A DNA stretch of 24,000 nucleotides, from NCBI GenBank assembly GCA_964464755.1, contig CAYXGZ010000012.1:43755-67754 (forward strand), written 5' to 3'. Below, piece by piece: positions 1,651 through 24,000 of this stretch. Below the pieces are notes generated by a model. The model was not told the DNA's origin. It ran no database searches and saw only the letters and a program-made list of their open reading frames with translations. Source of the stretch: an uncultured Planctomycetales bacterium. GTDB taxonomy: Bacteria; Planctomycetota; MHYJ01; JACPRB01. The position numbers and the translations under genes are program-made. Positions within the stretch are counted from its first letter, which is position 1. Each line of letters starts with the position of its first letter.

Positions 1651-1736
1651 GGGGTCGGGTGAATGTAATCGAAGGTTCCGGGGTATGCAATCACCGGAAT
1701 CCGAAACAAAACGGGTTTCCCGGCGGTCGACAGGGC

Positions 1737-5218: not shown

Positions 5219-5228
5219 TCGGGCTCCT

Positions 5229-6406: not shown

Positions 6407-6418
6407 GGGGCCGCCATT

Positions 6419-8808: not shown

Positions 8809-8846
8809 CGAAGGAGTCTACGGAAACCGCGTCCCGGGCGGCAAGG

Positions 8847-9659
8847 CTACTTCGCGGGCGAGGGGATGGGCGCGCCCTGGCGGAGCACGATGCGCTCGAT
8901 GGCGAGCGCGCGCCCGGTGTCGGTGTCGATCGTCGCGACGGCGCCCGAGATGCGCACGTCGCCGGTGGCGACCTCGAAGTAGGCCGGCAGCCCGGTGGTG
9001 AAGCGGTGCAGCACGCGGTCGACGCGGCGCCCGATGACGCCCTCGTGGGGCCCGGTCATGCCGACGTCGGTGATGTAGGCCGTCCCGCCGGGCATGACGC
9101 GCTCGTCGGCGGTCTGCACGTGGGTGTGGGTGCCGAACACGAAGCTCGCGCGGCCGTCCACGTGCCAGCCCATGCCGATCTTCTCGCTCGTCGCCTCGCA
9201 GTGCATGTCGACGATCACGACCTTGGTCTCGGCCTTGAACTTCTCGATCCAGGCGTCGGCGGCCCGGAAGGGGTTCTCGGCGGGCTGGTGCATGAACACG
9301 TTGCCCTGGAGGTGGATCACGCCGTACTTCTGGCCGCCCGCCTCCACGATCACGGCGCCGCGGCCCGGCTGGTCGGACAGGTAGTTCGCGGGCCGGAGGA
9401 TGGCCGGCACCTTGTCGATGTACGGGATGATCTCCTTCTTGTTCCAGACGTGGTCGCCGCAGGTGATGACGTCCACGCCGGCCTTGAAGAGGTCGTCCGC
9501 GTCCTCGGGCGTGATGCCCGCGCCCTGCGCGACGTTCTCGCCGTTCGCCACGACGAAGTGGATGCCCGCCTCCTTGCGGTAGGGGGCCAGCCGCTCCCGG
9601 ACGATGGCCTTGCCGGGCTTGCCGACGATGTCGCCGATGGCGAGGACGCGGACCTGCAT
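8847..9659 (-). CDS. ymdB: YmdB-family metallophosphoesterase (2',3'-cyclic-nucleotide 2'-phosphodiesterase-like)
   Basis: This is the C-terminal 270 codons of track ORF 8847..11222, with the start at ATG 9659: MQVRVLAIGDIVGKPGKAIVRERL...VVANGENVAQGAGITPED...VITCGDHVWNKKEI...ILRPANY. It is collinear with B. subtilis YmdB (MRILFIGDVVGSPG...INGENAAHGKG...TMGNHTWDKKE...VRPANF). It starts 2 nt after the rny stop, which is the conserved rny-ymdB pairing. Confidence 0.9.
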   Translation of the reverse strand: MQVRVLAIGDIVGKPGKAIVRERLAPYRKEAGIHFVVANGENVAQGAGITPEDADDLFKAGVDVITCGDHVWNKKEIIPYIDKVPAILRPANYLSDQPGRGAVIVEAGGQKYGVIHLQGNVFMHQPAENPFRAADAWIEKFKAETKVVIVDMHCEATSEKIGMGWHVDGRASFVFGTHTHVQTADERVMPGGTAYITDVGMTGPHEGVIGRRVDRVLHRFTTGLPAYFEVATGDVRISGAVATIDTDTGRALAIERIVLRQGAPIPSPAK

Positions 9660-9661
9660 GG

Positions 9662-11203
9662 CTACCTCGCGTACTCCACGACCCGGGTCTCCCGCAGGAC
9701 CGTGACCTTGATCTCGCCCGGGTACGTCATCTGCTGCTCGATCGTCTTGGCGATGTCGCGCGCGACGAGGAGCGCCTGGTCGTCCTTGATGCGGTCGCTG
9801 TCGACGAGCACGCGGATCTCGCGGCCCGCCTGGATGGCGAACGCGCCCGTGACGCCGGCGATCGACTTCGCGATGCCCTCGAGCTGCTCCAGCCGCTTGA
9901 CGTAGCGCTCCAGGTTCTCCGAGCGGGCGCCGGGGCGGGAGGCGCTGATCGCGTCCGCGGCCGCCGCGAGCACCGTGTAGGGGAACTTCGCGTCCGCGTC
10001 GTTGTGGTGGTTCGCGGCCGCGTCGATGACCTCCTTGGCCTCGTCGAAGCGCTTGAGCAGCTCGCCGCCGATCACCGGGTGCGAGCCCTCGAACTCCTGG
10101 TCGACGGCCTTGCCGATGTCGTGGAAGAGGCCGCAGCGGCGGGCCAGCTTGACGTCCATCTTCAGCTCGGCGGCCATCGCGGCGGTCAGGTGGGCCACCT
10201 CGCGGACGTGCTGGAGCACGTTCTGGCCGTAGCTCGTGCGGTACTTGAGCCGGCCGAGCAGCGTGATCAGCTTCGGGTGCACGTTCTGGATGTCCATCTC
10301 GTAGACGAACTGCTTGCCCGTCTCGAGGATGTGCTGCTCCATCTCGCGCTTCTGCTGCTCGACGATCTCCTCGATGCGCGTCGGGTGGATGCGGCCGTCC
10401 ACGAGGAGCTTCTCCATCGAGCGGCGCGCCATCTCGCGGCGCACGCCGTCGAAGGCCGAGAGGATGATGACGCCCGGGGTGTCGTCGACGACCACGTCGA
10501 CGCCCGTCGCCCGCTCGAAGGCGCGGATGTTGCGGCCCTCGCGGCCGATGATGCGGCCCTTCATCTCCTCGCCCGGCAGGTCGAGCGTGGTCACCACGCT
10601 GTCCGCGGTGTGGGAGGCGGCGAAGCGCTGGATGGCGAGGCCGATGATGCGCTTGGCCTCGGACTCCGCGTTCTCCTTGGCCCAGTCGACGCGCTTGCGG
10701 ACGAGCTCCGCCTTCTCGCGCTCGACCTCGGGCTCCAGCTTCTCGATGAGGAGCTTGATCGCGTCGTCCTTCGTCATGCCCGCGATCTGGTGGAGGGTCT
10801 CCTTCTCCTTGTCGATGATCTTGGAGATCTCCTTGTCCTTCTCCTGGAGGTCCTTCTCCTTGCGCTCGATCTCCTTGGTCTTGCCGTCGATCCAGCGCTC
10901 CTTGCCGGCGACGGACTCGCCGCGCTTCTCGATCGTGTCCTCCTTCTTCAGGAGGCGGTTCTCGAAGTCCTTGAGCTCGCGGCGCTCCTCGCGGATGGCC
11001 TTGTCGACCTCCTCCTTGGCCTTGACGGCGTCGGCCTTGGCGTCGACGACGACCTTCTCGCCCTTGATGCGGGCCTCGGCGAGGATCTCGTCGGCCTTGC
11101 GGAAGGTGGCCTTGTTGACTCGGCTGAACCAGGCGTAGCAGAAGGCGAAACCGGCGGCGAGCGCGACCGCTCCGACGATCGTGGCGAGCAGGGCGGGGGG
11201 CAT
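9662..11203 (-). CDS. rny: Ribonuclease Y
   Basis: Track ORF of 513 aa with an N-terminal TM helix (ALLATIVGAVALAAGFAFCYAWF) and a long Lys/Glu coiled coil. It also has a KH domain (GRIIGREGRNIRAFERATGVDVVVDD) and an HD domain (LFHDIGKAVD...ANHHND). Confidence 0.93.
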   Translation of the reverse strand: MPPALLATIVGAVALAAGFAFCYAWFSRVNKATFRKADEILAEARIKGEKVVVDAKADAVKAKEEVDKAIREERRELKDFENRLLKKEDTIEKRGESVAGKERWIDGKTKEIERKEKDLQEKDKEISKIIDKEKETLHQIAGMTKDDAIKLLIEKLEPEVEREKAELVRKRVDWAKENAESEAKRIIGLAIQRFAASHTADSVVTTLDLPGEEMKGRIIGREGRNIRAFERATGVDVVVDDTPGVIILSAFDGVRREMARRSMEKLLVDGRIHPTRIEEIVEQQKREMEQHILETGKQFVYEMDIQNVHPKLITLLGRLKYRTSYGQNVLQHVREVAHLTAAMAAELKMDVKLARRCGLFHDIGKAVDQEFEGSHPVIGGELLKRFDEAKEVIDAAANHHNDADAKFPYTVLAAAADAISASRPGARSENLERYVKRLEQLEGIAKSIAGVTGAFAIQAGREIRVLVDSDRIKDDQALLVARDIAKTIEQQMTYPGEIKVTVLRETRVVEYAR

Positions 11204-11211
11204 GCGACTCT

Positions 11212-11238
11212 CCCGTATCCAATGGGTTCCGATACGGG
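11212..11238 (-). promoter_or_regulatory. Stem-loop in the rny leader that overlaps the Shine-Dalgarno sequence
   Basis: The minus strand reads CCCGTATC-GGAACCCATTG-GATACGGG-AGAGTCGC-ATG. This is an 8-bp perfect stem with an 11-nt loop. The last GGG of the 3' arm is the start of the only SD-like element (GGGAGAG) ahead of the rny ATG at 11203. Confidence 0.35.
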
Positions 11239-11516
11239 CGCCGGACGGTGCAGGGAAGGCGGCGGCCGGGGTTCCCCCCGGATCGGCCTGCCTCCGCGGA
11301 CGACGCTGGACTCGACTACGGGAATCCCGCGCCGGAGAACGGCGCGGGCTTAAGCTCGGATTTAGGAGCGTCGGGTCGCACCGGACGAACGCCCATCTAT
11401 AGTTAATCCGCCGCGGTTCGGAACATTCTGCGGCGGAGGACTGCGCAAAAAGTACGCGATTCCCGGGTTCGAGTCAAGCCGAACCGGCGGCCCGGACGCA
11501 TTCCTGCACCATTTGC

Positions 11517-11545
11517 TTGACCCCCCCCGTCCCATGGGATAAGGT
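11517..11545 (+). promoter_or_regulatory. Candidate promoter of the FHA/pilMNO-like cluster: TTGACC-17 nt-TAAGGT, with a C8 tract spanning the -35 end and spacer
   Basis: TTGACC at 11517-11522, a 17-nt spacer, then TAAGGT at 11540-11545, which keeps T1, A2 and T6 of TATAAT. It lies 117 nt upstream of ATG 11662. The homopolymer CCCCCCCC is at 11521-11528. Assigned by hexamer inspection only. Confidence 0.3.
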
Positions 11546-11661: not shown

Positions 11662-13788
11662 ATGCCTAAACTGATCGTGCAGTTCCAGGGCCAGGAGTGG
11701 ACGGTCGAGCTCCGGGAGGGCTCCAACATCGTCGGCCGCTCCGCGAAGGCCGAGGTCCCCGTCCGCGACCCCAGCATGTCCCGCGAGCACGCCGAGGTGC
11801 GCCGCGAGGGCGACACCTGCACGATCGTCGACAAGGGGAGCATGAACGGCACGCTCCTCAACGGCACCAAGGTCGCCGAGCAGAAGCTCGTTCCCGGCGA
11901 CAAGCTCCAGATCGGCAACGCGGTCTTCTGGTTCGAGGAGAAGAAGGGCGACGCCGCTCCGCCCCCCGCGGTCCCCATGGCGACGCCGGACCCCGGCGCC
12001 CCGACCCGCATCCCCGCGCCCGCCGTCGAGGTGCCCAGGGCCCAGCCCTCGCCCTCCACCAAGCGCTCCGAGCCCAAGGCCTCGGCCCTCGTGAAGGACT
12101 TCGCCCAGTTCGGCAAGGACGGGGGCGGCCTCAACCCGGCGGTCCTCGCCGCCATCGTGGTCGTCGTCCTCGGCACCGCCGGCTGGTTCGGCTTCCGCGC
12201 CCTCTCCAAGGGTCCGGAGGGCGACGTCGACAAGGACAACCTCGTCGGCTACAACGGGTCCTTCGAGCTCGCCTCCGACAAGGGCGTGATCGGCTGGACG
12301 CTCCGCACGCCCGGCGCCTCGAAGCTCTCCACGATCGACAACGTCGCCAAGGACGGCGCCCGCTCGATGGGCCTCGAGAAGGCCGGCGGGCCCAGCGACC
12401 TCGTCGTCGAGATCGCCTCGAACGACGCCTTCGAGCTCCAGAAGAGCTCCCAGGTCGAGATCGGCGCGTGGGTCAAGGCCGAGTCGTACACCGGCCTCGT
12501 CGCCCTCCGCATCACCTGGCTGAGCAAGGTCGGCGGCGCGGTCATCCTCGAGGAGATCTCCGAGCCCTCGCCGCGCGGCGCGGAGTGGCAGTCCGTGCAG
12601 AAAACCTTCGCCGCGCCCGCGGGCGCCGGGGCCTTCGTCCCGGGCTTCCTCGCGGTCGGCCGCGGCGGCCGGATCTACATCGACGACGTGAAGGTGAAGC
12701 GGCGCGAGGGGGCCCCCTCGGACCGCTCCCTCGACCTCGGCAGCTTCCAGGTCTCGGCGGCCTCGACGGGCTCGTTCAACGTCCAGCAAGGGGGAAAGCG
12801 CGTGCTCTCGGGCGCGCAGGTCTGCCTCTGGAGCGAGAAGGACGGGGCGCTCTCGCAGGCCGTCGCGGCCGAATCGCGCTGCGACGTGGACGCCGCGAAG
12901 AAGACGCTCACGGCCGGCGGCAAGCTCTTCAGCCCCGTGGACCTCCGCACGGTCGACTTCGAGCAGGAGGTCAAGGGCTCGACCTCGCTGCTCGTCGGCT
13001 ACACGGTGAAGGGCGACATCCTCAAGCAGGTCGACCGCGTCGGGCTCCAGGTCTTCGTGCCGCGCGGCGAGATCGTCGGCGACGTGTCTCGGCCCGTCTC
13101 GAGGGCGACCCTGCGCGGCGAGGCGGGCGACTTCACCGTCGAGGTGGTGTCCGGCCAGCTCGCGACGGTGAGCGTCGAGTCGCTGCCCGGCGGCCGCCGC
13201 ATCCTCTTCGGGATCCCGGTCGAGCGCGGAGCCTCCGAGGTCGTGGCCGCGTTCGAGGTGAAGGCGGGCGTCTCGACCTCCGCCGACCCGAAGGTGAACG
13301 CGCAGAAGTCCGAGCAGGAGGGCCGGATGGCCGACGCGCGCCAGTGGTGGCGCCAGCTCGTCGACACGACCAAGGAACCCGAGAAGCAGGAGCAGTTCCG
13401 GCTCGAAACGCGTCGCCTCGACCAGCTCGAGACCACCGAGTGGAACGGCGTGCTCTCGGCGGGCTTCCGGGCCGGGCTGATGCGGCACCGGGCCCTCTTC
13501 GAGAAGGCGCTGCAGCTGCTCGATTCGCACGAGAAGCGCTGGCCCGGCGGACGCTACGCCGCGGCCGCGAAGTCGGAGCGGGAGCGCCTGTCGCAGGCCG
13601 TCGGCGGCGCCGCGGCCGACCGCGACTCCGAGCGCGCCCGCCGGCTCCTCCAGGAGGCGCGCGACTGCCTCGACACGGGGCGCAAGACCCTGGCCCGCGA
13701 GATCCTCCGGACGATCCGCGAGGTCTACCCGGCGTCCGACGCCGCGGGGCCCGCGGCGGAACTCCTCAAGCAGGTCAAGGCGGACTAA
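11662..13788 (+). CDS. FHA-domain / single-pass TM / CBM4_9-like beta-sandwich / C-terminal helical-repeat protein (708 aa)
   Basis: Track ORF 11587..13788. I prefer the start at ATG 11662 (MPKLIVQFQGQEWTVELREGSNIVGRS...SMSREHAEV...GSMNGTLLNG, the canonical FHA GR/SxxH/NG motifs). The 25 upstream codons have poor GC3, so 11587 remains possible. A Pro-rich linker follows, then a TM helix at 12130-12204. At 12235-12705 the sequence reads NLVGYNGSFE..GVIGWT...SQVEIGAWVKAES...WQSVQKTFAAP...GRIYIDDVKVKR, the pattern of CBM4_9-type jelly rolls. The C-terminus is helical and TPR-like. Confidence 0.8.
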   Translation: MPKLIVQFQGQEWTVELREGSNIVGRSAKAEVPVRDPSMSREHAEVRREGDTCTIVDKGSMNGTLLNGTKVAEQKLVPGDKLQIGNAVFWFEEKKGDAAPPPAVPMATPDPGAPTRIPAPAVEVPRAQPSPSTKRSEPKASALVKDFAQFGKDGGGLNPAVLAAIVVVVLGTAGWFGFRALSKGPEGDVDKDNLVGYNGSFELASDKGVIGWTLRTPGASKLSTIDNVAKDGARSMGLEKAGGPSDLVVEIASNDAFELQKSSQVEIGAWVKAESYTGLVALRITWLSKVGGAVILEEISEPSPRGAEWQSVQKTFAAPAGAGAFVPGFLAVGRGGRIYIDDVKVKRREGAPSDRSLDLGSFQVSAASTGSFNVQQGGKRVLSGAQVCLWSEKDGALSQAVAAESRCDVDAAKKTLTAGGKLFSPVDLRTVDFEQEVKGSTSLLVGYTVKGDILKQVDRVGLQVFVPRGEIVGDVSRPVSRATLRGEAGDFTVEVVSGQLATVSVESLPGGRRILFGIPVERGASEVVAAFEVKAGVSTSADPKVNAQKSEQEGRMADARQWWRQLVDTTKEPEKQEQFRLETRRLDQLETTEWNGVLSAGFRAGLMRHRALFEKALQLLDSHEKRWPGGRYAAAAKSERERLSQAVGGAAADRDSERARRLLQEARDCLDTGRKTLAREILRTIREVYPASDAAGPAAELLKQVKAD

Positions 13789-15593
13789 TGGGCTACGGGA
13801 TCGACATCGGCGCGGCCAACCTGAAGATCGTCCAGGTGCGCCGGACCCTCAACGGGTTCCGGATCGTCGGCGCGTCCCGCAAGCGGCTGCCCCGGGTCGA
13901 GAAGCCCGAGGAGACCAAGCAGAACGCGATCCGCGGCGTCCGCGAGGCGCTCGGGCTCCGCGAGGGCCAGGTCGCCGTCGTCGGCCTCAGCGGCCGCGAC
14001 ATCAACCTGAAGACCGTCCAGCAGGCCCAGATGAAGCCGATCCAGTACCGGACGATGATGGGCTACGAGGTGGACCAGGCGCGCGGCTCGGACAACCAGC
14101 TCTACGGCGACTTCTGCACGCTGCGCGAGCCCGACCCGTACTACCCGAACTACCTCGCGATGGTCGGCCTCGCGAAGGTCGCCTACGTGGACGACCGCCT
14201 CGCCATCGCGCAGTCCGCGGGCCTCGACGTCCGCGACGCCGTCCCCACGCCCTTCGCCATCTACACCGCGTACCACAACGCGTACGGCGACGAGAACGGG
14301 ACCGTGATGCTCCTCGACATCGGCGCCGAGACGACGGACCTCGTGCTCGTCCGCGGCGGCCGCCTCATCTTCTGCCGCAACGTCTCGACCGGCGCCCGCG
14401 TCTTCGACCAGAACATCTCCTCGATGGCGGGCCTGTCGTCCGACGACGCGGAGGCCCGGAAGATCCAGTACGGGACGCTCGGCGCGCCCGCGGAGGGCGC
14501 CGATCCGCGCGAGGAGGAGATCCGTCCCGCGATCCGGACCTCGGCGGGCCAGCTCGCCGGCGTCATCACGTCGAGCATCACGTTCGCCAAGGGGCAGCTC
14601 AACGACCGCGAGCTGACCGTGGACAAGATCTACGTGTCCGGCGGCGGCGCCCGCCTCAAGGGCCTGCCCGAGTACCTCCAGAGCTCGACGAAGATCGCCG
14701 TGGAGGTCCTCGACCCGTTCAAGAACTGCGAGTGGGGCTCCATCGGCGACAACCCGGACGCCAAGCAGCTGCCCAGCGACCTCGTGGCGGCGCTCGGCCT
14801 CGCGCAGATCTCGACGCAGTCCCGGGGCGGCTCGATCCTCTCGATCATCCCGGACCGCCTGAAGGTCCGCCGGAACTTCTTCCGCAGCGCGGTCTTCCTG
14901 ATCGCCGCGGGGGTCGTGCTGGCCGTGGGCGTCGCGGCGGCGACCGGCGTCGCCATCATGCGGCGCTCGGCGGCGGCGGCGGAGCTGGCGAAGTTCCAGG
15001 AGGAGACGAAGGCCGTCAGCGACCGGATCACGCAGCTCGACAAGCTCGAGGAGGAGCTGCGGGTCCTGATCGCCAAGCGGCGGCTGCTCGACAGCCACGT
15101 CGCGCCGGGCCGGGGCCTGCTGGAGACCGTGCTCAAGCTGCGCAAGACGCTTCCGGACGGGATCCACGTCCGGACGGTCGAGCTGGTCAACCTCGCGGAG
15201 GATCGCGCGGCGACGCCGGGCGGACCGCGGCGGCTCGTCTTCAGCTACCCGAACCGGGGCATCCTCGAGGGGACGGTGCCCCGGGGGAAGACAGAGTCGC
15301 CGAACGACCCCGACGTGCGCGTGCACCTGAGCGACGCGGCGGGCCACTCGGAGCCCGAGGTCTTCAGCAAGGGCGCGATGATCGGCGCGATCCCGGTGGA
15401 CGCGCCCTGGCTGGGCGTCCTGGTCAAGGGCGAGATCGACGACAACATCAAGGGCGGGCCGGGGACCGTGCTCGACGACCTGCGCCTGAACTTCACCGAT
15501 CCCCTGCGCGGCGTGTCCGCGGAGATCTTCCAGGAGGGCCCGGGCAACCGGCCCGGCTGGCAGACCTTCCGCATGGTGCTGCGGGGGGAATGA
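13788..15593 (+). CDS. PilM-PilN fusion protein (GspL-like architecture): actin-like ATPase-fold domain, linker, TM helix, coiled coil, periplasmic domain (601 aa)
   Basis: This is the C-terminal part of track ORF 11697..15593. The start ATG at 13788 overlaps the preceding TAA (TAATG). The N-terminus MGYGIDIGAANLKIVQVRR...VVGLSGRDINLK...LLDIGAETTDLVLV...IYVSGGGARLKGLPEYL is PilM-like. It is followed by ILSIIPDRLKVRRNFF (like the PilN INLLP...RR peptide) and a TM helix at 14877-14960. Then comes a coiled coil (AELAKFQEETKAVSDRITQLDKLEEELRVL) and about 190 further residues. Confidence 0.8.
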   Translation: MGYGIDIGAANLKIVQVRRTLNGFRIVGASRKRLPRVEKPEETKQNAIRGVREALGLREGQVAVVGLSGRDINLKTVQQAQMKPIQYRTMMGYEVDQARGSDNQLYGDFCTLREPDPYYPNYLAMVGLAKVAYVDDRLAIAQSAGLDVRDAVPTPFAIYTAYHNAYGDENGTVMLLDIGAETTDLVLVRGGRLIFCRNVSTGARVFDQNISSMAGLSSDDAEARKIQYGTLGAPAEGADPREEEIRPAIRTSAGQLAGVITSSITFAKGQLNDRELTVDKIYVSGGGARLKGLPEYLQSSTKIAVEVLDPFKNCEWGSIGDNPDAKQLPSDLVAALGLAQISTQSRGGSILSIIPDRLKVRRNFFRSAVFLIAAGVVLAVGVAAATGVAIMRRSAAAAELAKFQEETKAVSDRITQLDKLEEELRVLIAKRRLLDSHVAPGRGLLETVLKLRKTLPDGIHVRTVELVNLAEDRAATPGGPRRLVFSYPNRGILEGTVPRGKTESPNDPDVRVHLSDAAGHSEPEVFSKGAMIGAIPVDAPWLGVLVKGEIDDNIKGGPGTVLDDLRLNFTDPLRGVSAEIFQEGPGNRPGWQTFRMVLRGE

Positions 15594-15599
15594 GGAGCC

Positions 15600-16394
15600 A
15601 TGGACTACTGGTGGAAGGAGAACCGGAAGTTCGCCCTCGCGGTCGGCGGGGGCGTGCTCGGGCTCGCCGCCTGGGCGCTGTTCGTCGTCGGGCCGATCAA
15701 CGCGTCGGCCGACAAGGCGCGCCAGGACCTGACGAACCAGCGCCTCATGCTCCAGGGCCGGCTCGCCGCGGGCGTCCCCGCCGAGGACTCCGTGGGCCGG
15801 GCCGAGCGCGACCGCAAGGCGCTGACCGAGGACCTCAAGAGCCTGCAGGCGGCCGCGGAGTTCAAGCTCGAGGAGGCGTTCAAGGGCTCCGACGGCTCGA
15901 AGACGCCGCAGGAGCTGCTGGGCCGCGCGCGCGGCGACTTGGTCAAGCTGCTGGACCTGAAGTGCAAGGAGCGCGGCTTCCCCCAGATCGCCCAGAACCT
16001 CGGGATGCCCTCGAGCGTGCAGACCCTGCCGGACCCGGTGGCCACGGAGTGGCTGAAGCGGCTCGCCATCCTGAAGCGGGTCTGCCTGCTGGCCATCGAG
16101 CACGCGGAGAAGCTGGAACTCGTCGAGGTCGTCCCCAACCCGAACCAGGACGAGTCGCTGATCCAGGACGCCCGCTTCATGAACAAGCTGACGTTGAAGT
16201 TCCGCGTGCAGGCGCCGGCCGAGGGCACGCTGCGGCTGGTGCACGCGCTGCAGCAGAAGGGGACCTTCCTCGCCGTCGAGGCCTTCTCGACCGGCCTGGC
16301 CGACGCGGGGCGCGACCTGATGTCGACGGAACTGTCCGTGTGCGGGATCTTCGCGAACCTGTCCGGGGGCGTGATGCCCGAGCACAAGGAGTGA
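15600..16394 (+). CDS. PilO/GspM-like bitopic inner-membrane assembly protein (264 aa); assignment by architecture and position
   Basis: Track ORF, with SD GAGGAG 3 nt upstream (15591-15596) overlapping the previous TGA stop (15591-15593). It has an N-terminal TM helix (FALAVGGGVLGLAAWALFVVG), then a coiled coil (ADKARQDLTNQRLMLQ...KALTEDLKSLQAAAEFKLEE) and a C-terminal alpha/beta region. It sits immediately after the PilMN fusion. Confidence 0.6.
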   Translation: MDYWWKENRKFALAVGGGVLGLAAWALFVVGPINASADKARQDLTNQRLMLQGRLAAGVPAEDSVGRAERDRKALTEDLKSLQAAAEFKLEEAFKGSDGSKTPQELLGRARGDLVKLLDLKCKERGFPQIAQNLGMPSSVQTLPDPVATEWLKRLAILKRVCLLAIEHAEKLELVEVVPNPNQDESLIQDARFMNKLTLKFRVQAPAEGTLRLVHALQQKGTFLAVEAFSTGLADAGRDLMSTELSVCGIFANLSGGVMPEHKE

Positions 16395-16398
16395 CGCG

Positions 16399-19224
16399 GT
16401 GGGCCCGCTGAAGAACTTCAACAAGGAACAGGTCACGCTCGGCGCGGCGGCCCTGCTCGCCGCGCTTGTCTTCGGCTGGCAGTCCGCCCGCGGCGGGTCC
16501 GGGACCGCGGGCGCGGGCGGGGCGGGCGGCGACCGGACCTACGGCACGCCGCGGCTCCAGGTGCCCGAGTTCGTGCAGCCCAAGGTCGACCACTACCTCC
16601 AGGGCCGCAACATCTGGGAGCCGCCGATCACCGGCCGGCTGCCCATCCCCGAGATCCGCCATCCCGAGCCGCGGCTGGACGGCCCCGTGCTGCCCCCGCT
16701 GCGGCCCTCGCCGAACTTCGAGATCTTCAACCGCGCGCTGCTTCCGGGGAAGGACCGCGTGCTGCCGCGGGCGCTGGGGGTCTCGACCCCTCCGGGCCTG
16801 CTGCCCGCGGCCGAGCTCGAGGCGCTCAAGGCCCTCAAGGAGCCCGAGGCGGTCGGCGTGCCGGACCGCCGCAAGCAGCTCATGCGGCCGACGGGCGAGG
16901 CGATCGTCCACCTGAAGCCGCCCGCCAAGCCGATCGAGGGGCGGGTGCTCCTCGAGAAGCCCGACGGCACGATCATGATCGAGATCGTCAAGGGAGACTC
17001 GAAGCAGCGTCGGGAGATCAAGCCCGACGACATCGACCGCGCCCACCCCGGCACCGAGGACGGCGTCGAGCGCGGCTGGGAGTACGAGAAGGACTACGAC
17101 CGGCGCTCGCGCCGGCTCAAGGACACGGACGTCGACGGGCACGTGAAGCTCGGCCGCTGGTGCCGCGAGCAGTCCGGCATGCTGCCGGAGGCCGCGCGGT
17201 CGTTCCGCACGGCCCTGGAGACCCTGCGCCGGAAGAACGACGTGTCGCAGAAGTCGCGCGAGATCCTCTTCCAGCTCGCGGACACGCACCGCGACCTGGG
17301 GGATATCGACGGCGCCGTTGCCGTCGTCTCGGAGTTCCTCGACTCCGTCCGCGGCGGCACCCAGGAGACGGGCGACCTCCACCTGAAGCTCGGGGATCTC
17401 TTCCGCGCGATCGGCCACTTCGAGCGCGCGGGCCAGAGCTACCTCGCCGCGGCGCTCCTCGAGCCCGCGCGCCAGGCCGGCCGGACGATGCTCGCCCGCG
17501 TGCAGTACGAGGCCGGGCGCGACGTCGACGCCCTCGACACGCTGGACCAGATGGCCAAGGCGCTCGGCAAGCTCGAGGACGAGGCCCTGCTCGTCCAGGC
17601 GCTCTGCCAGCTCCGCCAGGGCAACGCGGCGGCGGCCCAGGCCTCGCTCGCGGGCGTGCTGGCCGCCAGGCCGGACCACTCCGAGGCCCTGAACGCCGCG
17701 GGCGTCGCCCACGCGCTCCTCGGCCAGCCCGAGGGGCCGGCGAGGTTCGCGGCGGCCATCAAGGCGAACCAGTACGAGATCGACGCGTGGCTGAACCTCG
17801 CGGTGCTCTACCTGGCGGCGGGCGCCGCCCCCGAGGCCGAGGCGCTGTACCAGGCGGCCGCGCAGCGCGATCCGGACTCCCCGACGGCGCTCGCGGGCCT
17901 CGGGCTCGTGCAGGCGCTGAAGACCCAGGGCAAGGACACGGGCGGCCACCTGGACCGCGCGCTGGCCGTGCGCCCCGGGCACTACTACTCGAAGTACGCC
18001 CTCGGGCACCTCGCTCTCCAGGCGGGTCGCGCGCAGGAGGCCCTCGACCGCTTCACGGAGAGCTTCCGGGACGAGTCGTCCTACCTCCCGGCCTACTACG
18101 ACGCGTCGCTGGCCTACCTGGCCCTCGCCCGCGAGGAGCAGCGCGCCGGCCAGTACGGGCCGGCCGAGCAGCGGGCCGGGCGGATGGAGCGCGCCGCCTC
18201 GCTGCGCGTGAACGCCGAGACGCTGCTCGGGTCGATGCGCGAGCTGGACCCGACCCGGGCGGAGACCTACATCGCGCTCGGCTGCGTCTACGCCTCCCAG
18301 GGCCGCCCCTCGGAGGCCCTCGCCGCGTTGAACCAGGGCGCGACCGGCGCCCAGCCCGATCCGCTCGTCGAGTACGCCCGGGGCTTCGTCGACTACTGGT
18401 ACTCGGGCGAGAACCGCAAGCAGGGGATCGAGCTCGCCGAGGGCCGCTTCCGCGGCGGCTCCCTGATGCAGCCAGTCACCGAGTCCGACAAGGACTGGAT
18501 CGCCGCGTGCGTCGACGCGCTGAAGAAGGTCGACGATTGGAAGACGAAGCGCGTGCTCTTCGAGGACCGCTTCGACAACAACCAGTGGTCCCCGACGGCG
18601 GCCTGGCTCCGCGTCGAGGCGCCCAACGGCCCCCAGATGAAGGCCGAGGGCGGCCGCTGGGCCGTCAGCGGCGTCCAGGGTTCGGGCCGCAGCTCCCGCC
18701 TCACCGGGCTGGAGCGCCGCGACATCGCCGGCGTGGAGTTCCTGAGCGTCGAGGCCGTGCTCACGTGGGAGTCGCTGGCGGGCCAGGAGATCGGCTGCTC
18801 GGTGTTCGTCTCGAAGCCGGCGGGTTCCGGCGCCACGGAGCAGGCCCAGGGCGTCCACCTCGTCGTGACCGAGGACCGCGTCAAGGGGCTGCGGCTCGGC
18901 TTCGGCTACGGCATGGCCGTCCGCGAGCGGGGCCCGGACCAGCTCGGCGCGTTCACGATGGCCCTGGCCGCCGGGACCAAGTCCCTGCGCTTCAAGATCG
19001 AGCGGCGCGAGGCCGAGGCGCGCACGTGGGTCTTCGAGCTCTTCCTCTGGGACGAGGCGAAGCAGGACTGGAAGCTCGCGATCGAGAAGGCGCCCCCGAA
19101 GGTGCCTCACTCGGGGGATAATGTCCCGTACATCCTGTCGCTGTGGGGCCGGTCGGCCGTCGAGTCCCAGAAGGTCGGGTTCGGGATCGACGACGTCCGC
19201 GTCCTCATCACGACCCGGCGCTAG
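16399..19224 (+). CDS. 941-aa TM / Pro-rich / small beta-domain / TPR-repeat / C-terminal ConA-LamG-like beta-sandwich protein occupying the PilP/GspC slot
   Basis: Track ORF with GTG start and AAGGAG (16387-16392) 6 nt upstream. TM helix VTLGAAALLAALVFGW is followed by a Pro-rich stretch. The segment at 16894-17033 (GEAIVHLKPPAKPIEGRVLLEKPDGTIMIEIVKGDSKQRREIKPDDI) resembles PilP/GspC beta domains. At about 17100-18400 there are many Ala/Leu-rich 34-residue-like repeats (LGDLFRAIGHFERAGQSYLAAALLEP...). At about 18530-19221 the sequence reads FEDRFDNNQW...WAVSG...FLSVEAVLTWES...KVGFGIDDVRVL, which is jelly-roll-like. Confidence 0.75.
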   Translation: MGPLKNFNKEQVTLGAAALLAALVFGWQSARGGSGTAGAGGAGGDRTYGTPRLQVPEFVQPKVDHYLQGRNIWEPPITGRLPIPEIRHPEPRLDGPVLPPLRPSPNFEIFNRALLPGKDRVLPRALGVSTPPGLLPAAELEALKALKEPEAVGVPDRRKQLMRPTGEAIVHLKPPAKPIEGRVLLEKPDGTIMIEIVKGDSKQRREIKPDDIDRAHPGTEDGVERGWEYEKDYDRRSRRLKDTDVDGHVKLGRWCREQSGMLPEAARSFRTALETLRRKNDVSQKSREILFQLADTHRDLGDIDGAVAVVSEFLDSVRGGTQETGDLHLKLGDLFRAIGHFERAGQSYLAAALLEPARQAGRTMLARVQYEAGRDVDALDTLDQMAKALGKLEDEALLVQALCQLRQGNAAAAQASLAGVLAARPDHSEALNAAGVAHALLGQPEGPARFAAAIKANQYEIDAWLNLAVLYLAAGAAPEAEALYQAAAQRDPDSPTALAGLGLVQALKTQGKDTGGHLDRALAVRPGHYYSKYALGHLALQAGRAQEALDRFTESFRDESSYLPAYYDASLAYLALAREEQRAGQYGPAEQRAGRMERAASLRVNAETLLGSMRELDPTRAETYIALGCVYASQGRPSEALAALNQGATGAQPDPLVEYARGFVDYWYSGENRKQGIELAEGRFRGGSLMQPVTESDKDWIAACVDALKKVDDWKTKRVLFEDRFDNNQWSPTAAWLRVEAPNGPQMKAEGGRWAVSGVQGSGRSSRLTGLERRDIAGVEFLSVEAVLTWESLAGQEIGCSVFVSKPAGSGATEQAQGVHLVVTEDRVKGLRLGFGYGMAVRERGPDQLGAFTMALAAGTKSLRFKIERREAEARTWVFELFLWDEAKQDWKLAIEKAPPKVPHSGDNVPYILSLWGRSAVESQKVGFGIDDVRVLITTRR

Positions 19225-19233
19225 GGAGGTACG

Positions 19234-19857
19234 ATGCGGCGCTCCCCGGGGTTCACGCTGATCGAGATCCTCGTCGTCATCGTCATCATCGGGATCCTCG
19301 CCTCGCTCGCGCTCGTCGGCGTCAACGCGGCCCTCAACAGCGCCAAGGTCAGCGCCACCGAGTCCATGCTCCGCACGCTCGAGGGGGCCTGCCACCAGTA
19401 CCGCACGCGCTGGGGCGACTACCCGCCCTCCACGCTCACCGAGTTCAACGTGCAGCTCTCCAACGAGGTCAACAACGGCGCCGAGTCGCTCTGCGCCTGC
19501 CTCGGCTCCACGCTGAAGGGCGGGTCGCTGCTCTCGTCGGTGAAGGATGACCAGTTCGTCAACATGGACCGCGACGCGGCCCCGCGCAACGTGACGACCT
19601 GGTTCTTCGGAGACACGCAGCTCCGGGAGGTCGCCGACGCCTATGCGCAGCCGATGACCTACCTCCACTGGAAGGACTACCGCCGCGCCCCGGTCCAGGT
19701 CCGGAAGTACTGGATGGCGGACGGGGGGCCGGAGCAGGTCGTGCAGGTGGAGGTCAGCGCCGCCACGAAGGCCTTCCAGCGCCAGGACTCCTTCCAGATG
19801 AGGTCCGCGGGCAAGGACGGGAAGCTCGGGACCCCCGACGACATCCAACTGCCGTAG
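19234..19857 (+). CDS. GspG-family major pseudopilin / type IV pilin-like protein with prepilin N-methylation signal (207 aa)
   Basis: Track ORF with SD GGGAGG 4 nt upstream. MRRSPG|FTLIEILVVIVIIGILASLAL shows G-1, F+1 and E+5. ...AKVSATESMLRTLEGACHQYRTRWGDYP resembles the GspG helix, and the C-terminal SAGKDGKLGTPDDI resembles the GspG SAGPDG..GT.DDI calcium-loop motif. Confidence 0.85.
   Translation: MRRSPGFTLIEILVVIVIIGILASLALVGVNAALNSAKVSATESMLRTLEGACHQYRTRWGDYPPSTLTEFNVQLSNEVNNGAESLCACLGSTLKGGSLLSSVKDDQFVNMDRDAAPRNVTTWFFGDTQLREVADAYAQPMTYLHWKDYRRAPVQVRKYWMADGGPEQVVQVEVSAATKAFQRQDSFQMRSAGKDGKLGTPDDIQLP
19253..19287 (+). repeat. Copy 1 of a 35-nt perfect direct repeat (pseudopilin signal-sequence region)
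   Basis: TCACGCTGATCGAGATCCTCGTCGTCATCGTCATC is identical, including all synonymous positions, to 19899-19933. Confidence 0.9.
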
Positions 19858-19867
19858 GGGAGACACG

Positions 19868-20845
19868 ATGGGCCGCGCCAGGCGCGCCGACGCGGGCGTC
19901 ACGCTGATCGAGATCCTCGTCGTCATCGTCATCTTCTCGATGCTGATGGGGCTGGGGGTCTCGGTCCTCCGCAACGCGAACAAGGACCTCGGCGTCCGGG
20001 CCGCGGCGGGCCGCGTCGTCGCGATGATCCGCGCCGCCCACGACCACGCCCGCGCCGAGAACAGCCCGGCCTGGGTGATCTTCACGATGCAGGAGCCCTC
20101 CGCGGGCGCCCTCACCAAGGAGACGGTGGGGATGTGGCACTGCGAGGAGGACGGCCGCGGCGCCTTCGGCCTCGACCCCAAGGTGACCGGCGCGGTCATC
20201 CAGCCCGGCCGCATCGGGATGGGCTACCGGATGCGCAAGCCCGGCGACTCCGTGGAGCTCGGCGAGATCCCGTTCCAGGCGAAGGACCAGGGCGTCGCGC
20301 TCGAGCTCTGGTTCTGGCGGGACGCCGGCGGCCAGAAGTCCACGATCGCCGCGGCGGGGAAGGACCTCGAGCTCCTCCTCGACGCCACCGGCCGCGTCAC
20401 GGCGCGGATCGGCGGGCTCAACCTCGGTTCCGGCGACGCGCTGCTGCCCCGCGAGAGCTGGATCCACGTCCAGCTCCTGCACAACGGGCGCCAGGCCAAG
20501 CTCTTCCTCAACGACGTGGAAGTCGCCTCCGTGAACGGCGGGGTGCAGTGGTCGGACAAGCCCGCGCCGATCCTCGTCGGCGGCGGGCGCGACGGCCTGG
20601 TGGGCATGGTCGACGAGATCCGCCTCAGCCTCATCGTCCGGCGGGACATCTACCGCCTGCCGGCCCAGGTCGAGTTCCAGTTCGCGCCCGGCACGGTCCC
20701 CGTCAACGACGAGGTGATCCTGGCCTTCGACTCGCTGGGGCGCCTGGACCCGGCCCGCCACCCCGGGCCGTTCTCCTTCAAGGTCAAGTCGCCCGCGGAC
20801 GAGAAGGAGATCGTCGTGACCCCCCAGGGGGCGGTCCGGCGCTGA
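19868..20845 (+). CDS. Minor pseudopilin (GspH-like N-terminus) fused to a LamG / Laminin_G_3-type jelly-roll domain (325 aa)
   Basis: Track ORF. MGRARRADAG|VTLIEILVVIVIFSMLMGLGV carries a prepilin signal with E+5 but V instead of F at +1. At about 20243-20629 the sequence reads VALELWFWRD...ESWIHVQLLHNGRQAKLFLNDVEVAS...LVGGGRDGLVGMVDEIRLS, the signature I associate with Laminin_G_3 domains. Confidence 0.8.
   Translation: MGRARRADAGVTLIEILVVIVIFSMLMGLGVSVLRNANKDLGVRAAAGRVVAMIRAAHDHARAENSPAWVIFTMQEPSAGALTKETVGMWHCEEDGRGAFGLDPKVTGAVIQPGRIGMGYRMRKPGDSVELGEIPFQAKDQGVALELWFWRDAGGQKSTIAAAGKDLELLLDATGRVTARIGGLNLGSGDALLPRESWIHVQLLHNGRQAKLFLNDVEVASVNGGVQWSDKPAPILVGGGRDGLVGMVDEIRLSLIVRRDIYRLPAQVEFQFAPGTVPVNDEVILAFDSLGRLDPARHPGPFSFKVKSPADEKEIVVTPQGAVRR
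19899..19933 (+). repeat. Copy 2 of the 35-nt perfect direct repeat
   Basis: Identical to 19253-19287. It encodes TLIEILVVIVI in both pseudopilin genes. Confidence 0.9.
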
Positions 20846-20864
20846 GGAATTTTCCCGGCCCGCG

Positions 20865-20893
20865 TTGACACTCCCCTCCGGGCGGCGTACAGT
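20865..20893 (+). promoter_or_regulatory. Internal sigma70-like promoter: TTGACA-17 nt-TACAGT
   Basis: A perfect -35 TTGACA at 20865-20870, an exactly 17-nt spacer, and TACAGT at 20888-20893. It lies in the only sizeable gap (139 nt) of the cluster, 92 nt upstream of ATG 20985. An imperfect hairpin CAGCCG-CT-CCGCG...CGCGG-A-CGGCTG at about 20928-20958 lies in the resulting leader. SD GGAGGG is at 20975-20980. Confidence 0.4.
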
Positions 20894-20984
20894 TGTTGAT
20901 GGAGCGGGTCCTCTTTTCCTGACCGAGCAGCCGCTCCGCGTCCGCCCGCGGACGGCTGTCCCGGAACGCCGCCTGGAGGGCTTG

Positions 20985-23900
20985 ATGCCTCGCACGTCCC
21001 GCCGATCCGGCCTCGCGCTCGTCCTCGTCCTCACCGTCGTCATGGCCCTCGCCATCATCGCGACCCCGTTCGTCCTCTCGATGATCGAGCAGGAGCGGAC
21101 CGCGGTCACCGGCCGGGCCTGGCAGCAGGCGTTCACGGGCGCCGAGGGCGTCCGCAATTTCGCGATCACCCGGGTCCTGGCGGGGACCGACGGGATCGAG
21201 CGCCACGGGAACCCCCCGGGGACCCCGTACCTCGACACGCGCTCCGAGACGTTCGTTGACCTGCGCGACGCGAGGCTGCGCAACGCCGGCGTGCTCGACG
21301 GCAAGGGCAACCTCTGGGGCGTCATCGTCCAGGACGAGCAGGGCAAGGTCAACTCGCTGTCGGCCCCCGGCCCGGTGCTCCAGAATCTCCGCCGCGTCGT
21401 CGATCCCCGGGTCGTCGACCCGAAGGACTACCTGACGATCTACTCGTCCCGGCCCGGCCGCTGGATCCATCCCCAGCGCATCCGCGACCTCGGGACGTTC
21501 ACGAACCAGATCGGGTCCATCACCGGGCTCCAGCTCGACAGCGTGGTCCACCTGGCCCAGGGGGCCAAGGTCCGGATCTCCAAGCCCGGCCTTCCGGCGA
21601 TCGAGGCCGAGGTCGTCCAGAACGGCCGCTTCTTCTTCGGGATCGAGGCCATTTCGACGTCGCCGTCGGTCGGGGTGAACTACGCGAACGGCCTGGTGGA
21701 AGTCGAGGCCCGCCACCCGGTGAACGTGAACACCGCGCGCCGGGAGACGCTGATCGCCATGCTCGAGGGCCTCGCGCTCGCGTGGCCCGCGACGATGCCG
21801 CAGGGGCAGAAGTCGGCCGTCCTGAGCCGCTCCGACGCGATGGACGTCGCCGACGCGATCCGGGACAAGGGCTTCCAGACCTGGGACGCCTTCGTGCAGG
21901 CGGTCCTGGGGACCCAGGTGGACGACCTCGCGAAGTGCGCCGTGATCCTCAACGCGGTCGACCCCACGAACTTCCTCCTGGCGACGGCGGGGGGGCAGGG
22001 GTCCGGCACGTTGCCGTTCTGCTTCACGTCCTGCGAGACGATCACGGTCCTCGCGCGCAGCTCGGTGAACAACCCCCAGGGCGTCCCGGTCTCCGGCGCG
22101 GGCTTCCGCGAGGTGATCGATTACGCGCCCGCGACGACGCTGACGCTGCACGTCGAGAACGAGTACGACTTCGACCGCTTCCTCGGGCCGCCCCGGTTCG
22201 TCGTCAACGGCAACTCGATCTCGCTGGGGCAGGACGCCGCGGTGACCATGCAGATGGCGGGCTGGCCGGGCGCCTACAACGGCTACCCCTTCGGCGCCCG
22301 GATCATGACGTTCCCGACGGCCATCGCCTCGGGGCAGCCGGCCGACATGACCCTGAAGCCCCAGCCCGCGCAGACGGAGAACTACCTCTCGATGCGCACG
22401 GACCGCGACGTCCGCGGCGGCGGGCAGTGGATCAACAACTTCAACCACTTCGACGCCGAGGTCGACGGGCTCAAGCTCGTGAACGCCGTCCACTCGCCGG
22501 GGACCTGGGACACGGTCTTCAGCCGGAACCCGAACCAGTTCGGGCCGGACCCGACGCAGAACTTCCCCGACGTCTCCGCGGGCGGGACCGAGTTCTGGAT
22601 CCGCTTCGACGGGTCGGTCCCCGCGGCGCTGAAGCTCTTCGACATCCGGGAGGGGGACAAGAGCAACCGGATCTCCCTCGAGATCGAGGCCAAGGACATC
22701 GTCTACCGGATCACGGACGGCACGGTCGGCCGGCAGAACGCGCAGAACTTCGTGCTCGACAAGGGCTGGTCGGAGATCCGGGCCGTCCACCCCTTCGTGG
22801 CCGACACGTGGTACCACATCGCCATCTACTGGAAGGGCACGCGGTACGGGCACATGCTGCTGATGATCGACGGGTTCGTGCCGACCGGAGCGAAGTGGCG
22901 CTGCGTGGACGACGAGTCGCTGACCGACTGCTCGACGGAGCTGATCAACCCGCTCACGATCCCGACCGATCCGAACGACCTCAACCAGACCTACATCTCG
23001 CTCCCGATGAAGAACACGGGCTGGCTGCAGAAGCCCGCCTCGTGGCCCTCCACGGAACCGTTCATCGTCCCGCTCCTGATCGGGGCGGAGGTCTTCCACT
23101 ACGAGCCCGACACGGGGATGGCGGCCCGGGGCCAGCGGGCGACCGCGTTCCAGGACCACGTCGCCGGGGCCAAGGTCACCCTCTTCGGCTACGCCAGCCG
23201 GATCCGGGACCTGGACGTGAACATCGACTACGGAGACGGCGAGCCGCCCGTCCAGATGCGCTTCGACTTCCTCCCGCGTGCCCAGGCGGTCACGACGCGG
23301 CAGTTCGGGGCGATGATGACGGCCAGCATCAACGGGCCGGACGACATCGACGCCGACGGGATGGCGACCGAGCTCGCGATGGCGACGACGACGGGCATCA
23401 AGTTCACGACGAACGACACGGCCGCCTGGCCGCAGCCGGGGTTCATCCGGATCCAGAACGAGGCGATCTACTACGAGAAGATCACGGTCCAGGACGCGAC
23501 CAACGGGACCTTCGACAACTGCACCCGGGGGGCGGAGGCCACGATAGCCGCGGACCATCCGGCGGGCTCCATGATCGAGATGTGGGGCATCGCCGTCGAC
23601 ATGCTGGACGCCAACATCCCGCTCAACACGGCCCTCATGATCCAGGACGAGCTGTTCTGGCCGGTCCGGACCACGACGAACACCACCGACCCCAGCCAGA
23701 TCAACTTCTGGGTCGGGGTCGTGGTGAACCCGGGGATGTCGAACGCCATCGCCCGCCCGCTGCGCCGGGACCCGGTGGCGGGGCCGCAGGTGCCGCACCC
23801 CGCCGGGGAGCGCATCATCCCGGGCTTCGCGATCCGGGAATCGGACCCCGGCCAGTTCCGCTGGAACGCCGCCCGGGGCGACCTGGTCACGGTCGTCGAC

Positions 23901-24000
23901 TCCAACGACCGCAAGGAGACCCACCAGGTCGGGGCCGTGCGGAACCAGCCGAACCCGCCGGACACCGTGACCCCCAACAACCCGTCGGTCGTCTTCAACG
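20985..24000 (+). CDS. Giant GspK-like minor pseudopilin (more than 1005 aa, runs off the right edge) with internal LamG-type domain
   Basis: Absent from the track because it has no stop in the window; translated by hand in the frame of ATG 20985, with an in-frame TGA upstream at 20898. MPRTSRRSGLALVLVLTVVMALAIIATPF is a pilin-like hydrophobic N-terminus lacking Glu+5, as in GspK. VIVQDEQGKVNSLS (21327-21359) and HPVNVNTARRETLIAMLEGL (about 21717-21773) match the GspK DE.GK.NLN and NxNTA helix-hairpin-helix motifs. At about 22440-22900 the sequence reads GTEFWIRFDG...DTWYHIAIYWKGTRYGHMLLMIDGF, which is LamG-like. The frame is still open at 24000. Confidence 0.8.
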   Translation, partial: MPRTSRRSGLALVLVLTVVMALAIIATPFVLSMIEQERTAVTGRAWQQAFTGAEGVRNFAITRVLAGTDGIERHGNPPGTPYLDTRSETFVDLRDARLRNAGVLDGKGNLWGVIVQDEQGKVNSLSAPGPVLQNLRRVVDPRVVDPKDYLTIYSSRPGRWIHPQRIRDLGTFTNQIGSITGLQLDSVVHLAQGAKVRISKPGLPAIEAEVVQNGRFFFGIEAISTSPSVGVNYANGLVEVEARHPVNVNTARRETLIAMLEGLALAWPATMPQGQKSAVLSRSDAMDVADAIRDKGFQTWDAFVQAVLGTQVDDLAKCAVILNAVDPTNFLLATAGGQGSGTLPFCFTSCETITVLARSSVNNPQGVPVSGAGFREVIDYAPATTLTLHVENEYDFDRFLGPPRFVVNGNSISLGQDAAVTMQMAGWPGAYNGYPFGARIMTFPTAIASGQPADMTLKPQPAQTENYLSMRTDRDVRGGGQWINNFNHFDAEVDGLKLVNAVHSPGTWDTVFSRNPNQFGPDPTQNFPDVSAGGTEFWIRFDGSVPAALKLFDIREGDKSNRISLEIEAKDIVYRITDGTVGRQNAQNFVLDKGWSEIRAVHPFVADTWYHIAIYWKGTRYGHMLLMIDGFVPTGAKWRCVDDESLTDCSTELINPLTIPTDPNDLNQTYISLPMKNTGWLQKPASWPSTEPFIVPLLIGAEVFHYEPDTGMAARGQRATAFQDHVAGAKVTLFGYASRIRDLDVNIDYGDGEPPVQMRFDFLPRAQAVTTRQFGAMMTASINGPDDIDADGMATELAMATTTGIKFTTNDTAAWPQPGFIRIQNEAIYYEKITVQDATNGTFDNCTRGAEATIAADHPAGSMIEMWGIAVDMLDANIPLNTALMIQDELFWPVRTTTNTTDPSQINFWVGVVVNPGMSNAIARPLRRDPVAGPQVPHPAGERIIPGFAIRESDPGQFRWNAARGDLVTVVDSNDRKETHQVGAVRNQPNPPDTVTPNNPSVVFN

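Follow-up and report, generated by a model that had tools for sequence, protein, structure and literature searches.

The genes between base 11,662 and the end of a 24,000-nucleotide (nt) stretch of DNA from an uncultured member of the Planctomycetota (this whole stretch is referred to below as the window) probably encode the assembly platform and the pilins, that is one half, of a type IV filament (T4F) machine which is distributed over several loci and has its motor elsewhere in the genome. The window holds the first seven genes (J to P) of a nine-gene operon-like module (J to R), in which the platform appears to be of the type IVa pilus (T4aP) kind and the pilins of the kind used in type II secretion (T2SS). 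An initial annotation, made from the DNA sequence, had described the region as a hybrid of these two systems and had proposed it as an undescribed one. The hybrid character holds in so far as a PilM-type platform is combined with Gsp-type pilins, but it partly restates deep homology, because GspL/M are homologues of PilM-N/PilO. No description of the layout was found in the full-text literature searched, and a reference survey of T4F mentions neither Planctomycetes nor FHA; a missing motor, however, is normal for multi-locus T4aP (PMC6668835), and the module is therefore most readily understood as a variant, uncharacterised and specific to its lineage, of a machine whose kind is known, and not as a categorically new system.

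The coding capacity of the region can be read straight from its base composition. The window has about 71% GC, and between 11.6 and 24 kb the GC content of third codon positions (GC3) is 0.96-1.00 in one plus-strand frame at a time, which supports seven genes, all on the plus strand (table 1). J and K overlap by 1 nt (TAATG at 13786-13790), and the later intergenic gaps are, in order, 6, 4, 9, 10 and 139 nt, exactly as the initial annotation had given them. The start of J at 11662 is supported by the J-family consensus, which opens with MPKL.

The conserved unit extends beyond the window. In the related locus L003 (GCA_016209705.1), the K of which is 53% identical, J to P are followed by Q, R, a non-conserved open reading frame (ORF) of 223 amino acids (aa), and then ksgA, dnaG and rpoD. 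Because a Q orthologue (P0168) is present on the source contig, this contig should continue like L003, and the conserved unit is made up of nine genes, J-K-L-M-N-O-P-Q-R, with Q and R lying just past base 24000. The pilin set is a complete G/H/K/J/I quintet. The absence of GspI and GspJ that had been noted at first was thus an artefact of the window end, whereas the absence of an ATPase, a platform protein, a secretin and a prepilin peptidase from the window was correctly observed.

Related loci came from a pattern scan in which a P-family alignment was run against 185,579 species genomes, and gene order was compared by tblastn, blastp and hidden Markov models. The scan returned 35 loci, all but three of which are labelled Planctomycetota (the others being Salinarimonas, Proteobacteria or Spirochaetaceae), with one further locus labelled only 'uncultured bacterium'; a genome scan with K alone as the query gave no match. 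The order J-K-L-M-N-O-P(-Q-R) is colinear in 13 species-level loci from Planctomycetota metagenome-assembled genomes (MAGs), at identities down to 22-30%, and eight partial contig fragments are consistent with the J-to-R order. The synteny that had been proposed as a check on the annotation is thus present, although in two lineages the module is split by 13-28 kb of unrelated genes exactly at the gap between O and P. The genes inserted there (L006/L039 and L007/L040) include those for a Wzz/GNVR polysaccharide co-polymerase, a giant Fn3-rich protein, a PD40 beta-propeller and a DUF7133-cytochrome c protein. A search of 1.84 billion representative proteins yields no more than 303 clusters of the P family at E<=1e-3, the named members of which are all 'hypothetical protein' from Planctomycetota MAGs. 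GC content is uniform at ~0.70, which, together with the conserved chromosomal position, indicates vertical inheritance; a mobile or horizontally acquired island was rejected on these two features and because no mobility genes were seen.

Four of the nine products, J, K, L and M, are bitopic inner-membrane proteins, with the PilM-type and FHA domains on the cytoplasmic side. K is a fusion of PilM with a PilN-like tail. Its actin-like, ATP-binding PilM domain (residues 1-343) is followed by an LSIIP motif (351-355) and a transmembrane helix (368-386), and the tail goes on with a coiled coil that extends to ~454 (a helix of ~90 residues) and a beta-rich periplasmic domain (459-600). K is recognised by Pfam PilM_2 (3.7e-26, above the Pfam cut-off of 27 bits) and by the NCBIfam models Amuc_1101_fam (4.6e-38, the best model) and pilM (2e-21). 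The AlphaFold model of K (pLDDT 88) leads to the same assignment, as its ten best Foldseek matches are without exception PilM proteins of Pseudomonas, Myxococcus and Thermus (E 1e-24), with TM-scores of 0.78-0.84 when normalised by the target (TMt). The LSI[IL]P motif, with its invariant S352 and P355, is kept throughout the family and resembles the INLLP motif through which PilN binds PilM (PDB entry 2YCH). When the C-terminal half of K was used as a profile, the top PDB match was M. xanthus PilN (3jc8_Na), at an E-value of only 0.032, and neither the K tail nor L has a Pfam PilN or PilO match. The fusion proposed initially is therefore firm for PilM and weaker for PilN, where it draws on the LSILP motif and a match at E 0.03.

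L, with a transmembrane helix at residues 12-30, has no Pfam match, and its NCBIfam match to GspM (E 0.015) is not significant. The top PDB match of the L family profile is Akkermansia Amuc_1100 (6kny, E 0.03, residues 61-222), a protein with two alpha-beta-beta motifs, the fold common to platform proteins of type IV pili (T4P) and T2SS (PMC13119276). L is kept between K and M in 15 loci from relatives. Taken together, these features weakly suggest a PilO/GspM/Amuc_1100-like protein, which is as far as the original PilO/GspM assignment can be followed.

J combines a cytoplasmic FHA domain (residues 23-85) and a transmembrane helix (160-178, from a hydropathy scan) with a periplasmic part in which a CBM4/9/22-like beta-sandwich (~197-353) is followed by a region rich in beta structure and, at the C-terminus, by TPR-like helices. 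The FHA domain was detected by Pfam (PF00498, 3.9e-15, 56.5 bits against a cut-off of 20.7; Yop-YscD_cpl 6.9e-14), and the J family profile matches FHA structures at 6e-19 at best, with Rv0020c, GarA and OdhI at ~1e-18. J carries the signature of phosphothreonine binding (G-R, S-x-x-H, N-G), in which R26 is invariant and S-R-x-H and N-G-T are kept in the consensus. The same family profile matches CBM structures (xylanase CBM22 2w5f, 3e-7; CBM 4d0q, 1e-5) and, through the TPR-like end, YbgF/CpoB (2e-7); residues 350-650 gave no match in the Pfam scan. The FHA, transmembrane and CBM-like parts that had been read from the sequence were all recovered.

M has a transmembrane helix (12-30), a Pro-rich linker, a long TPR solenoid (~250-650) and a C-terminal beta-rich domain (~690-941). 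Pfam TPR families match at up to 2.6e-19 and the family profile strongly matches TPR structures; the NCBIfam matches to Tgl (1e-10) and PilW (7e-10) run across the TPR repeats only, and residues 31-250 and 690-941 have no match in the Pfam scan.

All five pilins possess a G/[FVLM] cleavage site (the slash marks the cut), and a glutamate at position 5 of the mature protein (Glu5) is present in N, O, Q and R and missing from P. The prepilin class III signal reads G/[FVM]TLIE in N and O of the window and in Q and R of relatives, and G/LALV in P; matches to N_methyl and TIGR02532 back these signals. N (G/FTLIE; N_methyl 9.5e-9) is likely to be the major subunit. It matches the GspG model TIGR01710 at 8e-13, over residues 6-66 only and with 48.6 bits against a cut-off of 88.85 bits, and Pfam T2SSG weakly; its family keeps GDYPP and a GspG-like C-terminal loop, S-x-G-P-D-G...D-D-I (judged by eye in the alignment), and its family profile matches GspG 5wda at 3e-13 and other type IV pilins as well. 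O (G/VTLIE) contains an inserted LamG domain (Pfam Laminin_G_3 4.1e-9, N_methyl 2.2e-6) and matches the GspH model TIGR01708 at 2.9e-7.

P is a giant GspK-like minor pseudopilin, the full length of which is 1380 aa (P0121, 100% identical to the translation of the window). The pilin-type N-terminus is followed by a GspK-like region to ~400, a LamG domain (~530-640) and beta-rich repeats. P alone gave only a weak Laminin_G_3 match in Pfam, but the N-termini of its family match NCBIfam T2SS_GspK in 12/12 cases (best 2e-12), Pfam T2SSK in 7/12 and PilX_N in 5/12; the window P itself scores 19.6-21.2 bits with the GspK model NF037980, the cut-off of which is 130 bits. The motifs DEQGKxN and RHPVNxNTA are invariant in the family. 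Besides an N-terminal helix of 58 residues, an AlphaFold model of the 1005 residues in the window (pLDDT 80.6) contains an alpha/beta region, a sandwich resembling LamG and repeats rich in beta structure. The last two pilins were described from L003, where Q (382 aa) is GspJ- or Verru_Chthon-C-like, at a family size of ~370-380 aa, and R (163 aa) is GspI/PilV-like. Q, the K tail, L and residues 690-1380 of P gave nothing in the Pfam scan. As regards the pilins of the window, the earlier calls of a GspG-like pseudopilin, a LamG-bearing pseudopilin and a GspK-like protein of more than 1005 aa are all upheld.

Two further characteristics of the large pilins were observed. A motif of ~25-40 aa, E-x-[IV]-x-[YF] ... 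R-G-x2-[GS]-T-x-A-x2-H-x2-G, occurs four times in P (~697-727 and ~826-858 in the window; ~1111-1142 and ~1189-1226 in P0121) and once at the C-terminus of Q (L003:14925-15035, Q 323-359). The Glu, Arg and His residues of this motif do not vary in the family, its sole Pfam hint is DUF7265 (E 0.09), and it could form a metal- or ligand-binding hairpin. In addition, the giant GspK-like gene is tandemly duplicated (P0163, P0164) in one sub-lineage (L014, L015, L016 and L018; for example L014:9290-13795 and 14138-18145) and enlarged to 1650-1900 aa in other lineages.

By analogy with PilMNO, GspLM and GspHIJK, the coiled coils of K and L would hold the two together as an assembly platform, to which an extension ATPase and a polytopic platform protein, both from genes elsewhere, would dock. 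A prepilin peptidase, also encoded elsewhere, would process the five pilins, and R, Q, P and O would prime the filament of N. As P lacks Glu5, it is expected to cap the tip, and its LamG and beta-repeat domains, ~1000 residues in all, would be displayed there as a head that binds a ligand, probably a glycan; the CBM-like domain of J may likewise bind a ligand, probably a glycan. M would span the periplasm between the platform and any conduit in the outer membrane, and the FHA domain of J would tie assembly to Ser/Thr-kinase signalling and may gate it. A bolder form of this mechanism would be a surface-fibre machine specific to Planctomycetota, in which a lectin-like GspK tip captures polysaccharide, Ser/Thr kinases switch the machine on via FHA, M and the periplasmic part of J replace PilP/PilQ in a possibly secretin-free arrangement, and the product is possibly the basis of the glycan-harvesting fibres proposed for planctomycetes; in this extended form we consider the proposal quite improbable.

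The size of P would speak for a filament exposed at the surface and against a short piston in the periplasm, and this is the point at which the module has to be compared with T2SS. The region could be the GspL/M and GspG-K half of a true T2SS, that is a short periplasmic pseudopilus that pushes folded exoproteins through GspD, with gspD, E, F and O in another locus. The module and T2SS share the five-member G/H/I/J/K composition, with N closest to GspG and keeping its C-terminal loop, a cap that lacks Glu5 and is GspK-like in each of the 12 family members scanned, and minor pilins resembling H, J and I; the topology of the PilM-PilN fusion is, moreover, that of GspL. However, the cytoplasmic domain of K is PilM and not GspL, both by sequence, with no T2SSL match, and by fold, as only PilM appears among its top ten Foldseek matches. 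The Gsp matches all lie below curated cut-offs, none of GspC, GspD, GspE, GspF, GspL, GspM and GspO was detected, and in the neighbourhoods examined (defined below) GspC, D, E, F and O are lacking next to the module as well. The pilin genes run in the order G-H-K-J-I and the minor pilins are much enlarged (325, 1380 and ~370-380 aa); a cap that has 1380-1900 aa and carries lectin-like domains sits uneasily on a pseudopilus confined to the periplasm. A true T2SS is therefore unlikely.

The neighbourhood was examined in the Pfam-annotated gene calls of four relatives' loci and in sampled, non-exhaustive flanks of five more, while all 40 fetched loci were tested for the Walker A motif only. The GspE/PilB-type Walker A motif G[PS][TS]GSGK[ST] is absent from the window and from the 40 loci (+/-10 kb), and T2SSE from the gene calls and flanks examined. 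No GspF/PilC platform protein or A24 prepilin peptidase appears in the Pfam annotations around L001-L003, L039 and L040 or in the scanned flanks, and no secretin or PilP in the cluster or in the flanks of relatives that were examined; these gene calls and flanks hold housekeeping or unrelated genes. T4aP are usually encoded in several loci, and MSH loci without a peptidase borrow one from another system (PMC6668835), so that by the same reasoning the motor would be encoded elsewhere and the lack of motor genes nearby points to multi-locus organisation and not to a motor-less machine. The same absences would also fit an orphan or decaying cassette that has lost its motor genes and has no present function. 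Against decay, all frames of the window are intact, with GC3 of 0.96-0.99 as in the flanking housekeeping genes, gene order is kept in 13 or more genomes, dozens of positions never vary despite overall identities of 22-50%, and a promoter-like element is conserved upstream; such a relic is hardly credible.

Several points weigh against the reading of the module as half of a T4F machine. The family matches to T2SS, Amuc_1101 and Verru_Chthon models are all below curated cut-offs. The PilN-like and PilO-like assignments come from matches at E ~0.03 each, and a profile-profile comparison (hhalign) of the K tail with L found no similarity apart from the transmembrane helix. The GspK-likeness of P appears in sequence profiles only: Foldseek against PDB with the P model gave weak LamG matches and no GspK, and a PDB sequence-profile search with the P N-terminus gave no match. 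M was placed in the PilP/GspC slot by its position alone, while its TPR nature, also claimed at the outset, is well supported. The ATPase, platform protein, peptidase and secretin are presumed to be encoded elsewhere in the genome, and none was located in the loci examined. Finally, filament formation and ligand binding are predictions from the genes alone.

Putative control elements lie at both ends of the six-gene block J to O. A sigma-70-like element (TTGACC-17 nt-TAAGGT), 117 nt 5' of J and the sole match of its pattern in the window, is a candidate for the operon promoter, and TTGAC[CG]-N17-18-TAnnnT is found 5' of the J orthologue in 7/13 loci. A second promoter-like site (TTGACA-17 nt-TACAGT) within the gap between O and P is the sole sigma-70-type match in 13 kb, where 0.2 would be expected; L003 has a similar one and the other loci checked have none. 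The intergenic region between rny and J contains blocks kept among relatives, TTCTGCG..GG.GACTG and GAGTCAAGC; the GAGTCAAGC block is a TTGAC -35 box if read on the minus strand and may thus belong to a divergent rny promoter.

The genes 5' of J are housekeeping genes, all except one on the opposite strand: M64 peptidase, the plus-strand ORF of 470 aa, tRNA-Leu, dxs, ispA, xseB, an HGSNAT-like gene, xseA, ymdB and rny. The 470-aa ORF has a strong coding composition (GC3 0.91) and no Pfam family at E<=0.01; the tRNA-Leu(CAG) gene lies between it and dxs. The HGSNAT-like membrane acyltransferase gene, between xseB and xseA, is not found at that position in L001, L039 and L040. Flanks are shared in at least three lineages, with rny-ymdB-xseA-ispA-dxs (and xseB) on one side of the module and ksgA-dnaG-rpoD (L003:16675-21082) on the other, whereas distant lineages have different flanks, again of housekeeping or unrelated genes.

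Table 1. Features of the window, with positions counted from its first base.
Feature	Position	Strand	Remark
470-aa ORF	1659-3071	+	next to tRNA-Leu
tRNA-Leu(CAG)	3106-3193	-	
dxs-ispA-xseB-xseA-ymdB-rny	3242-11203		conserved chromosomal context
HGSNAT-like gene	6419-7450	-	membrane acyltransferase
rny-J intergenic region	11204-11516		conserved blocks
Candidate sigma-70-like promoter	11517..11545	+	5' of J
Gene J	11662-13788	+	708 aa
Gene K	13788-15593	+	601 aa
Gene L	15600-16394	+	264 aa
Gene M	16399-19224	+	941 aa
Gene N	19234-19857	+	207 aa
Gene O	19868-20845	+	325 aa
O-P gap	20846-20984		139 nt
Second promoter-like site	20865..20893	+	within O-P gap
Gene P	20985->24000	+	first 1005 of 1380 aa inside window
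P/Q motif, first site	23073-23165		in P
P/Q motif, second site	23460-23558		in P

Envelope machines have hardly been studied in this phylum, for which the module represents a conserved T4F layout that is passed on vertically. Three of its characteristics are new to T4F in the literature searched: a dedicated FHA-transmembrane-CBM component, a TPR scaffold of ~940 aa in place of PilP/PilQ, and GspK-like caps that measure 1300-1900 aa and carry LamG domains as well as a recurrent motif with invariant Glu, Arg and His. The link between these planctomycete genes and Amuc_1100/1101 of Akkermansia suggests an ancestral PilM-N/PilO-type platform in the Planctomycetes-Verrucomicrobia-Chlamydiae (PVC) superphylum. 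Profiles of the nine families would let annotation tools name 'hypothetical' genes in hundreds of MAGs.

Among known systems, the closest parallel to the platform is the PilM-PilN-PilO(-PilP-PilQ) set of T4aP in P. aeruginosa, M. xanthus and T. thermophilus. K shares the actin-like domain and continues, as PilN does, from the LSILP motif into a transmembrane helix and a coiled coil; a bitopic and putatively PilO-like protein, L, adjoins it likewise, and in both cases the machine is read as occupying more than one locus (PMC6668835). In contrast to T4aP, PilM is fused to a PilN-like part, PilP and PilQ are missing, the FHA protein and the 941-aa TPR protein are extra, and the pilins are Gsp-type instead of PilA/FimU/PilVWXE. 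A fused PilM-N, a TPR protein and a large LamG protein are features which we presume to be shared with MSHA, and this likeness is taken as a lead only; when the ten proteins were all compared with NCBIfam, with E-values of up to 0.1 allowed, none of the Msh families, whether MshI/J/K/L/M/N/E/G, MshA-D or MshO-Q, came up.

The architecture of J, with a cytoplasmic FHA domain, one transmembrane helix and a periplasmic domain, is found likewise in inner-membrane proteins of type III secretion (SctD/YscD), type VI secretion (TagH/Fha1) and M. xanthus gliding (GltG, matched by J at 3.6e-11). The likeness of J to these proteins is, however, confined to the FHA domain, and no other component of the three systems is present. 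Kinship with the Glt gliding-motility system was rejected, as the matches of J to GltG and of M to GltE/Tgl involve the FHA or TPR domain only.

The remaining comparisons, with Akkermansia muciniphila MUL2 (Amuc_1098-1102), with the Verru_Chthon cassette A-D (TIGR02596-02600) and with the cyanobacterial Hps pseudopilins, raise the question of whether the module is a PVC-type T4F machine for handling glycans, which would capture or import polysaccharide like MUL2 or export it like Hps, with the CBM and LamG domains as sugar-binding parts. The best NCBIfam model for K is Amuc_1101_fam (MUL2B), the 608 positions of which are near the length of K, and the K-L gene pair parallels Amuc_1101 and Amuc_1100, to which L is closest; MUL2 has been linked to mucin and glycan acquisition (PMC13174399). 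The CBM4/9/22-like domain of J and the LamG domains of O and P would also suit such a role, but these folds bind proteins too. K scores 131.4 bits with Amuc_1101_fam (NF045709, residues 142-430) against a cut-off of 650 bits and is thus not a member, and there is neither an Amuc_1102-type pilin nor an adjoining secretin, whereas Amuc_1098 adjoins in Akkermansia. The Amuc locus, for its part, lacks an FHA protein, a TPR protein and a set of five pseudopilins (PMC13174399; PMC13119276). In the Verru_Chthon and Hps cassettes several prepilin-like proteins stand next to a very large protein, as they do here; N and O match cassette protein D, Q matches C (10/10 family members) and R matches B, and Q and R also weakly match HpsC and HpsB. 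These matches are mostly in pilin N-termini and below cut-off, and the cassettes are themselves uncharacterised; P, which has no match to it, is ruled out as Verru_Chthon cassette protein A. The polysaccharide co-polymerase in the insertion between O and P would fit glycan handling, yet it is found in a single lineage and may be a coincidence, and the module has neither a glycoside hydrolase nor a transporter linked to it. A dedicated glycan machine is possible, though on balance somewhat unlikely.

With all matches below curated cut-offs, the module is not filed as a T2SS, T4aP, MSHA or Amuc_1101-family member. The curated models nearest to this putative half of a T4F machine are those specific to the PVC superphylum: K comes closest to Amuc_1101_fam and L to Amuc_1100, and R, Q and N/O come closest to Verru_Chthon B, C and D, respectively.

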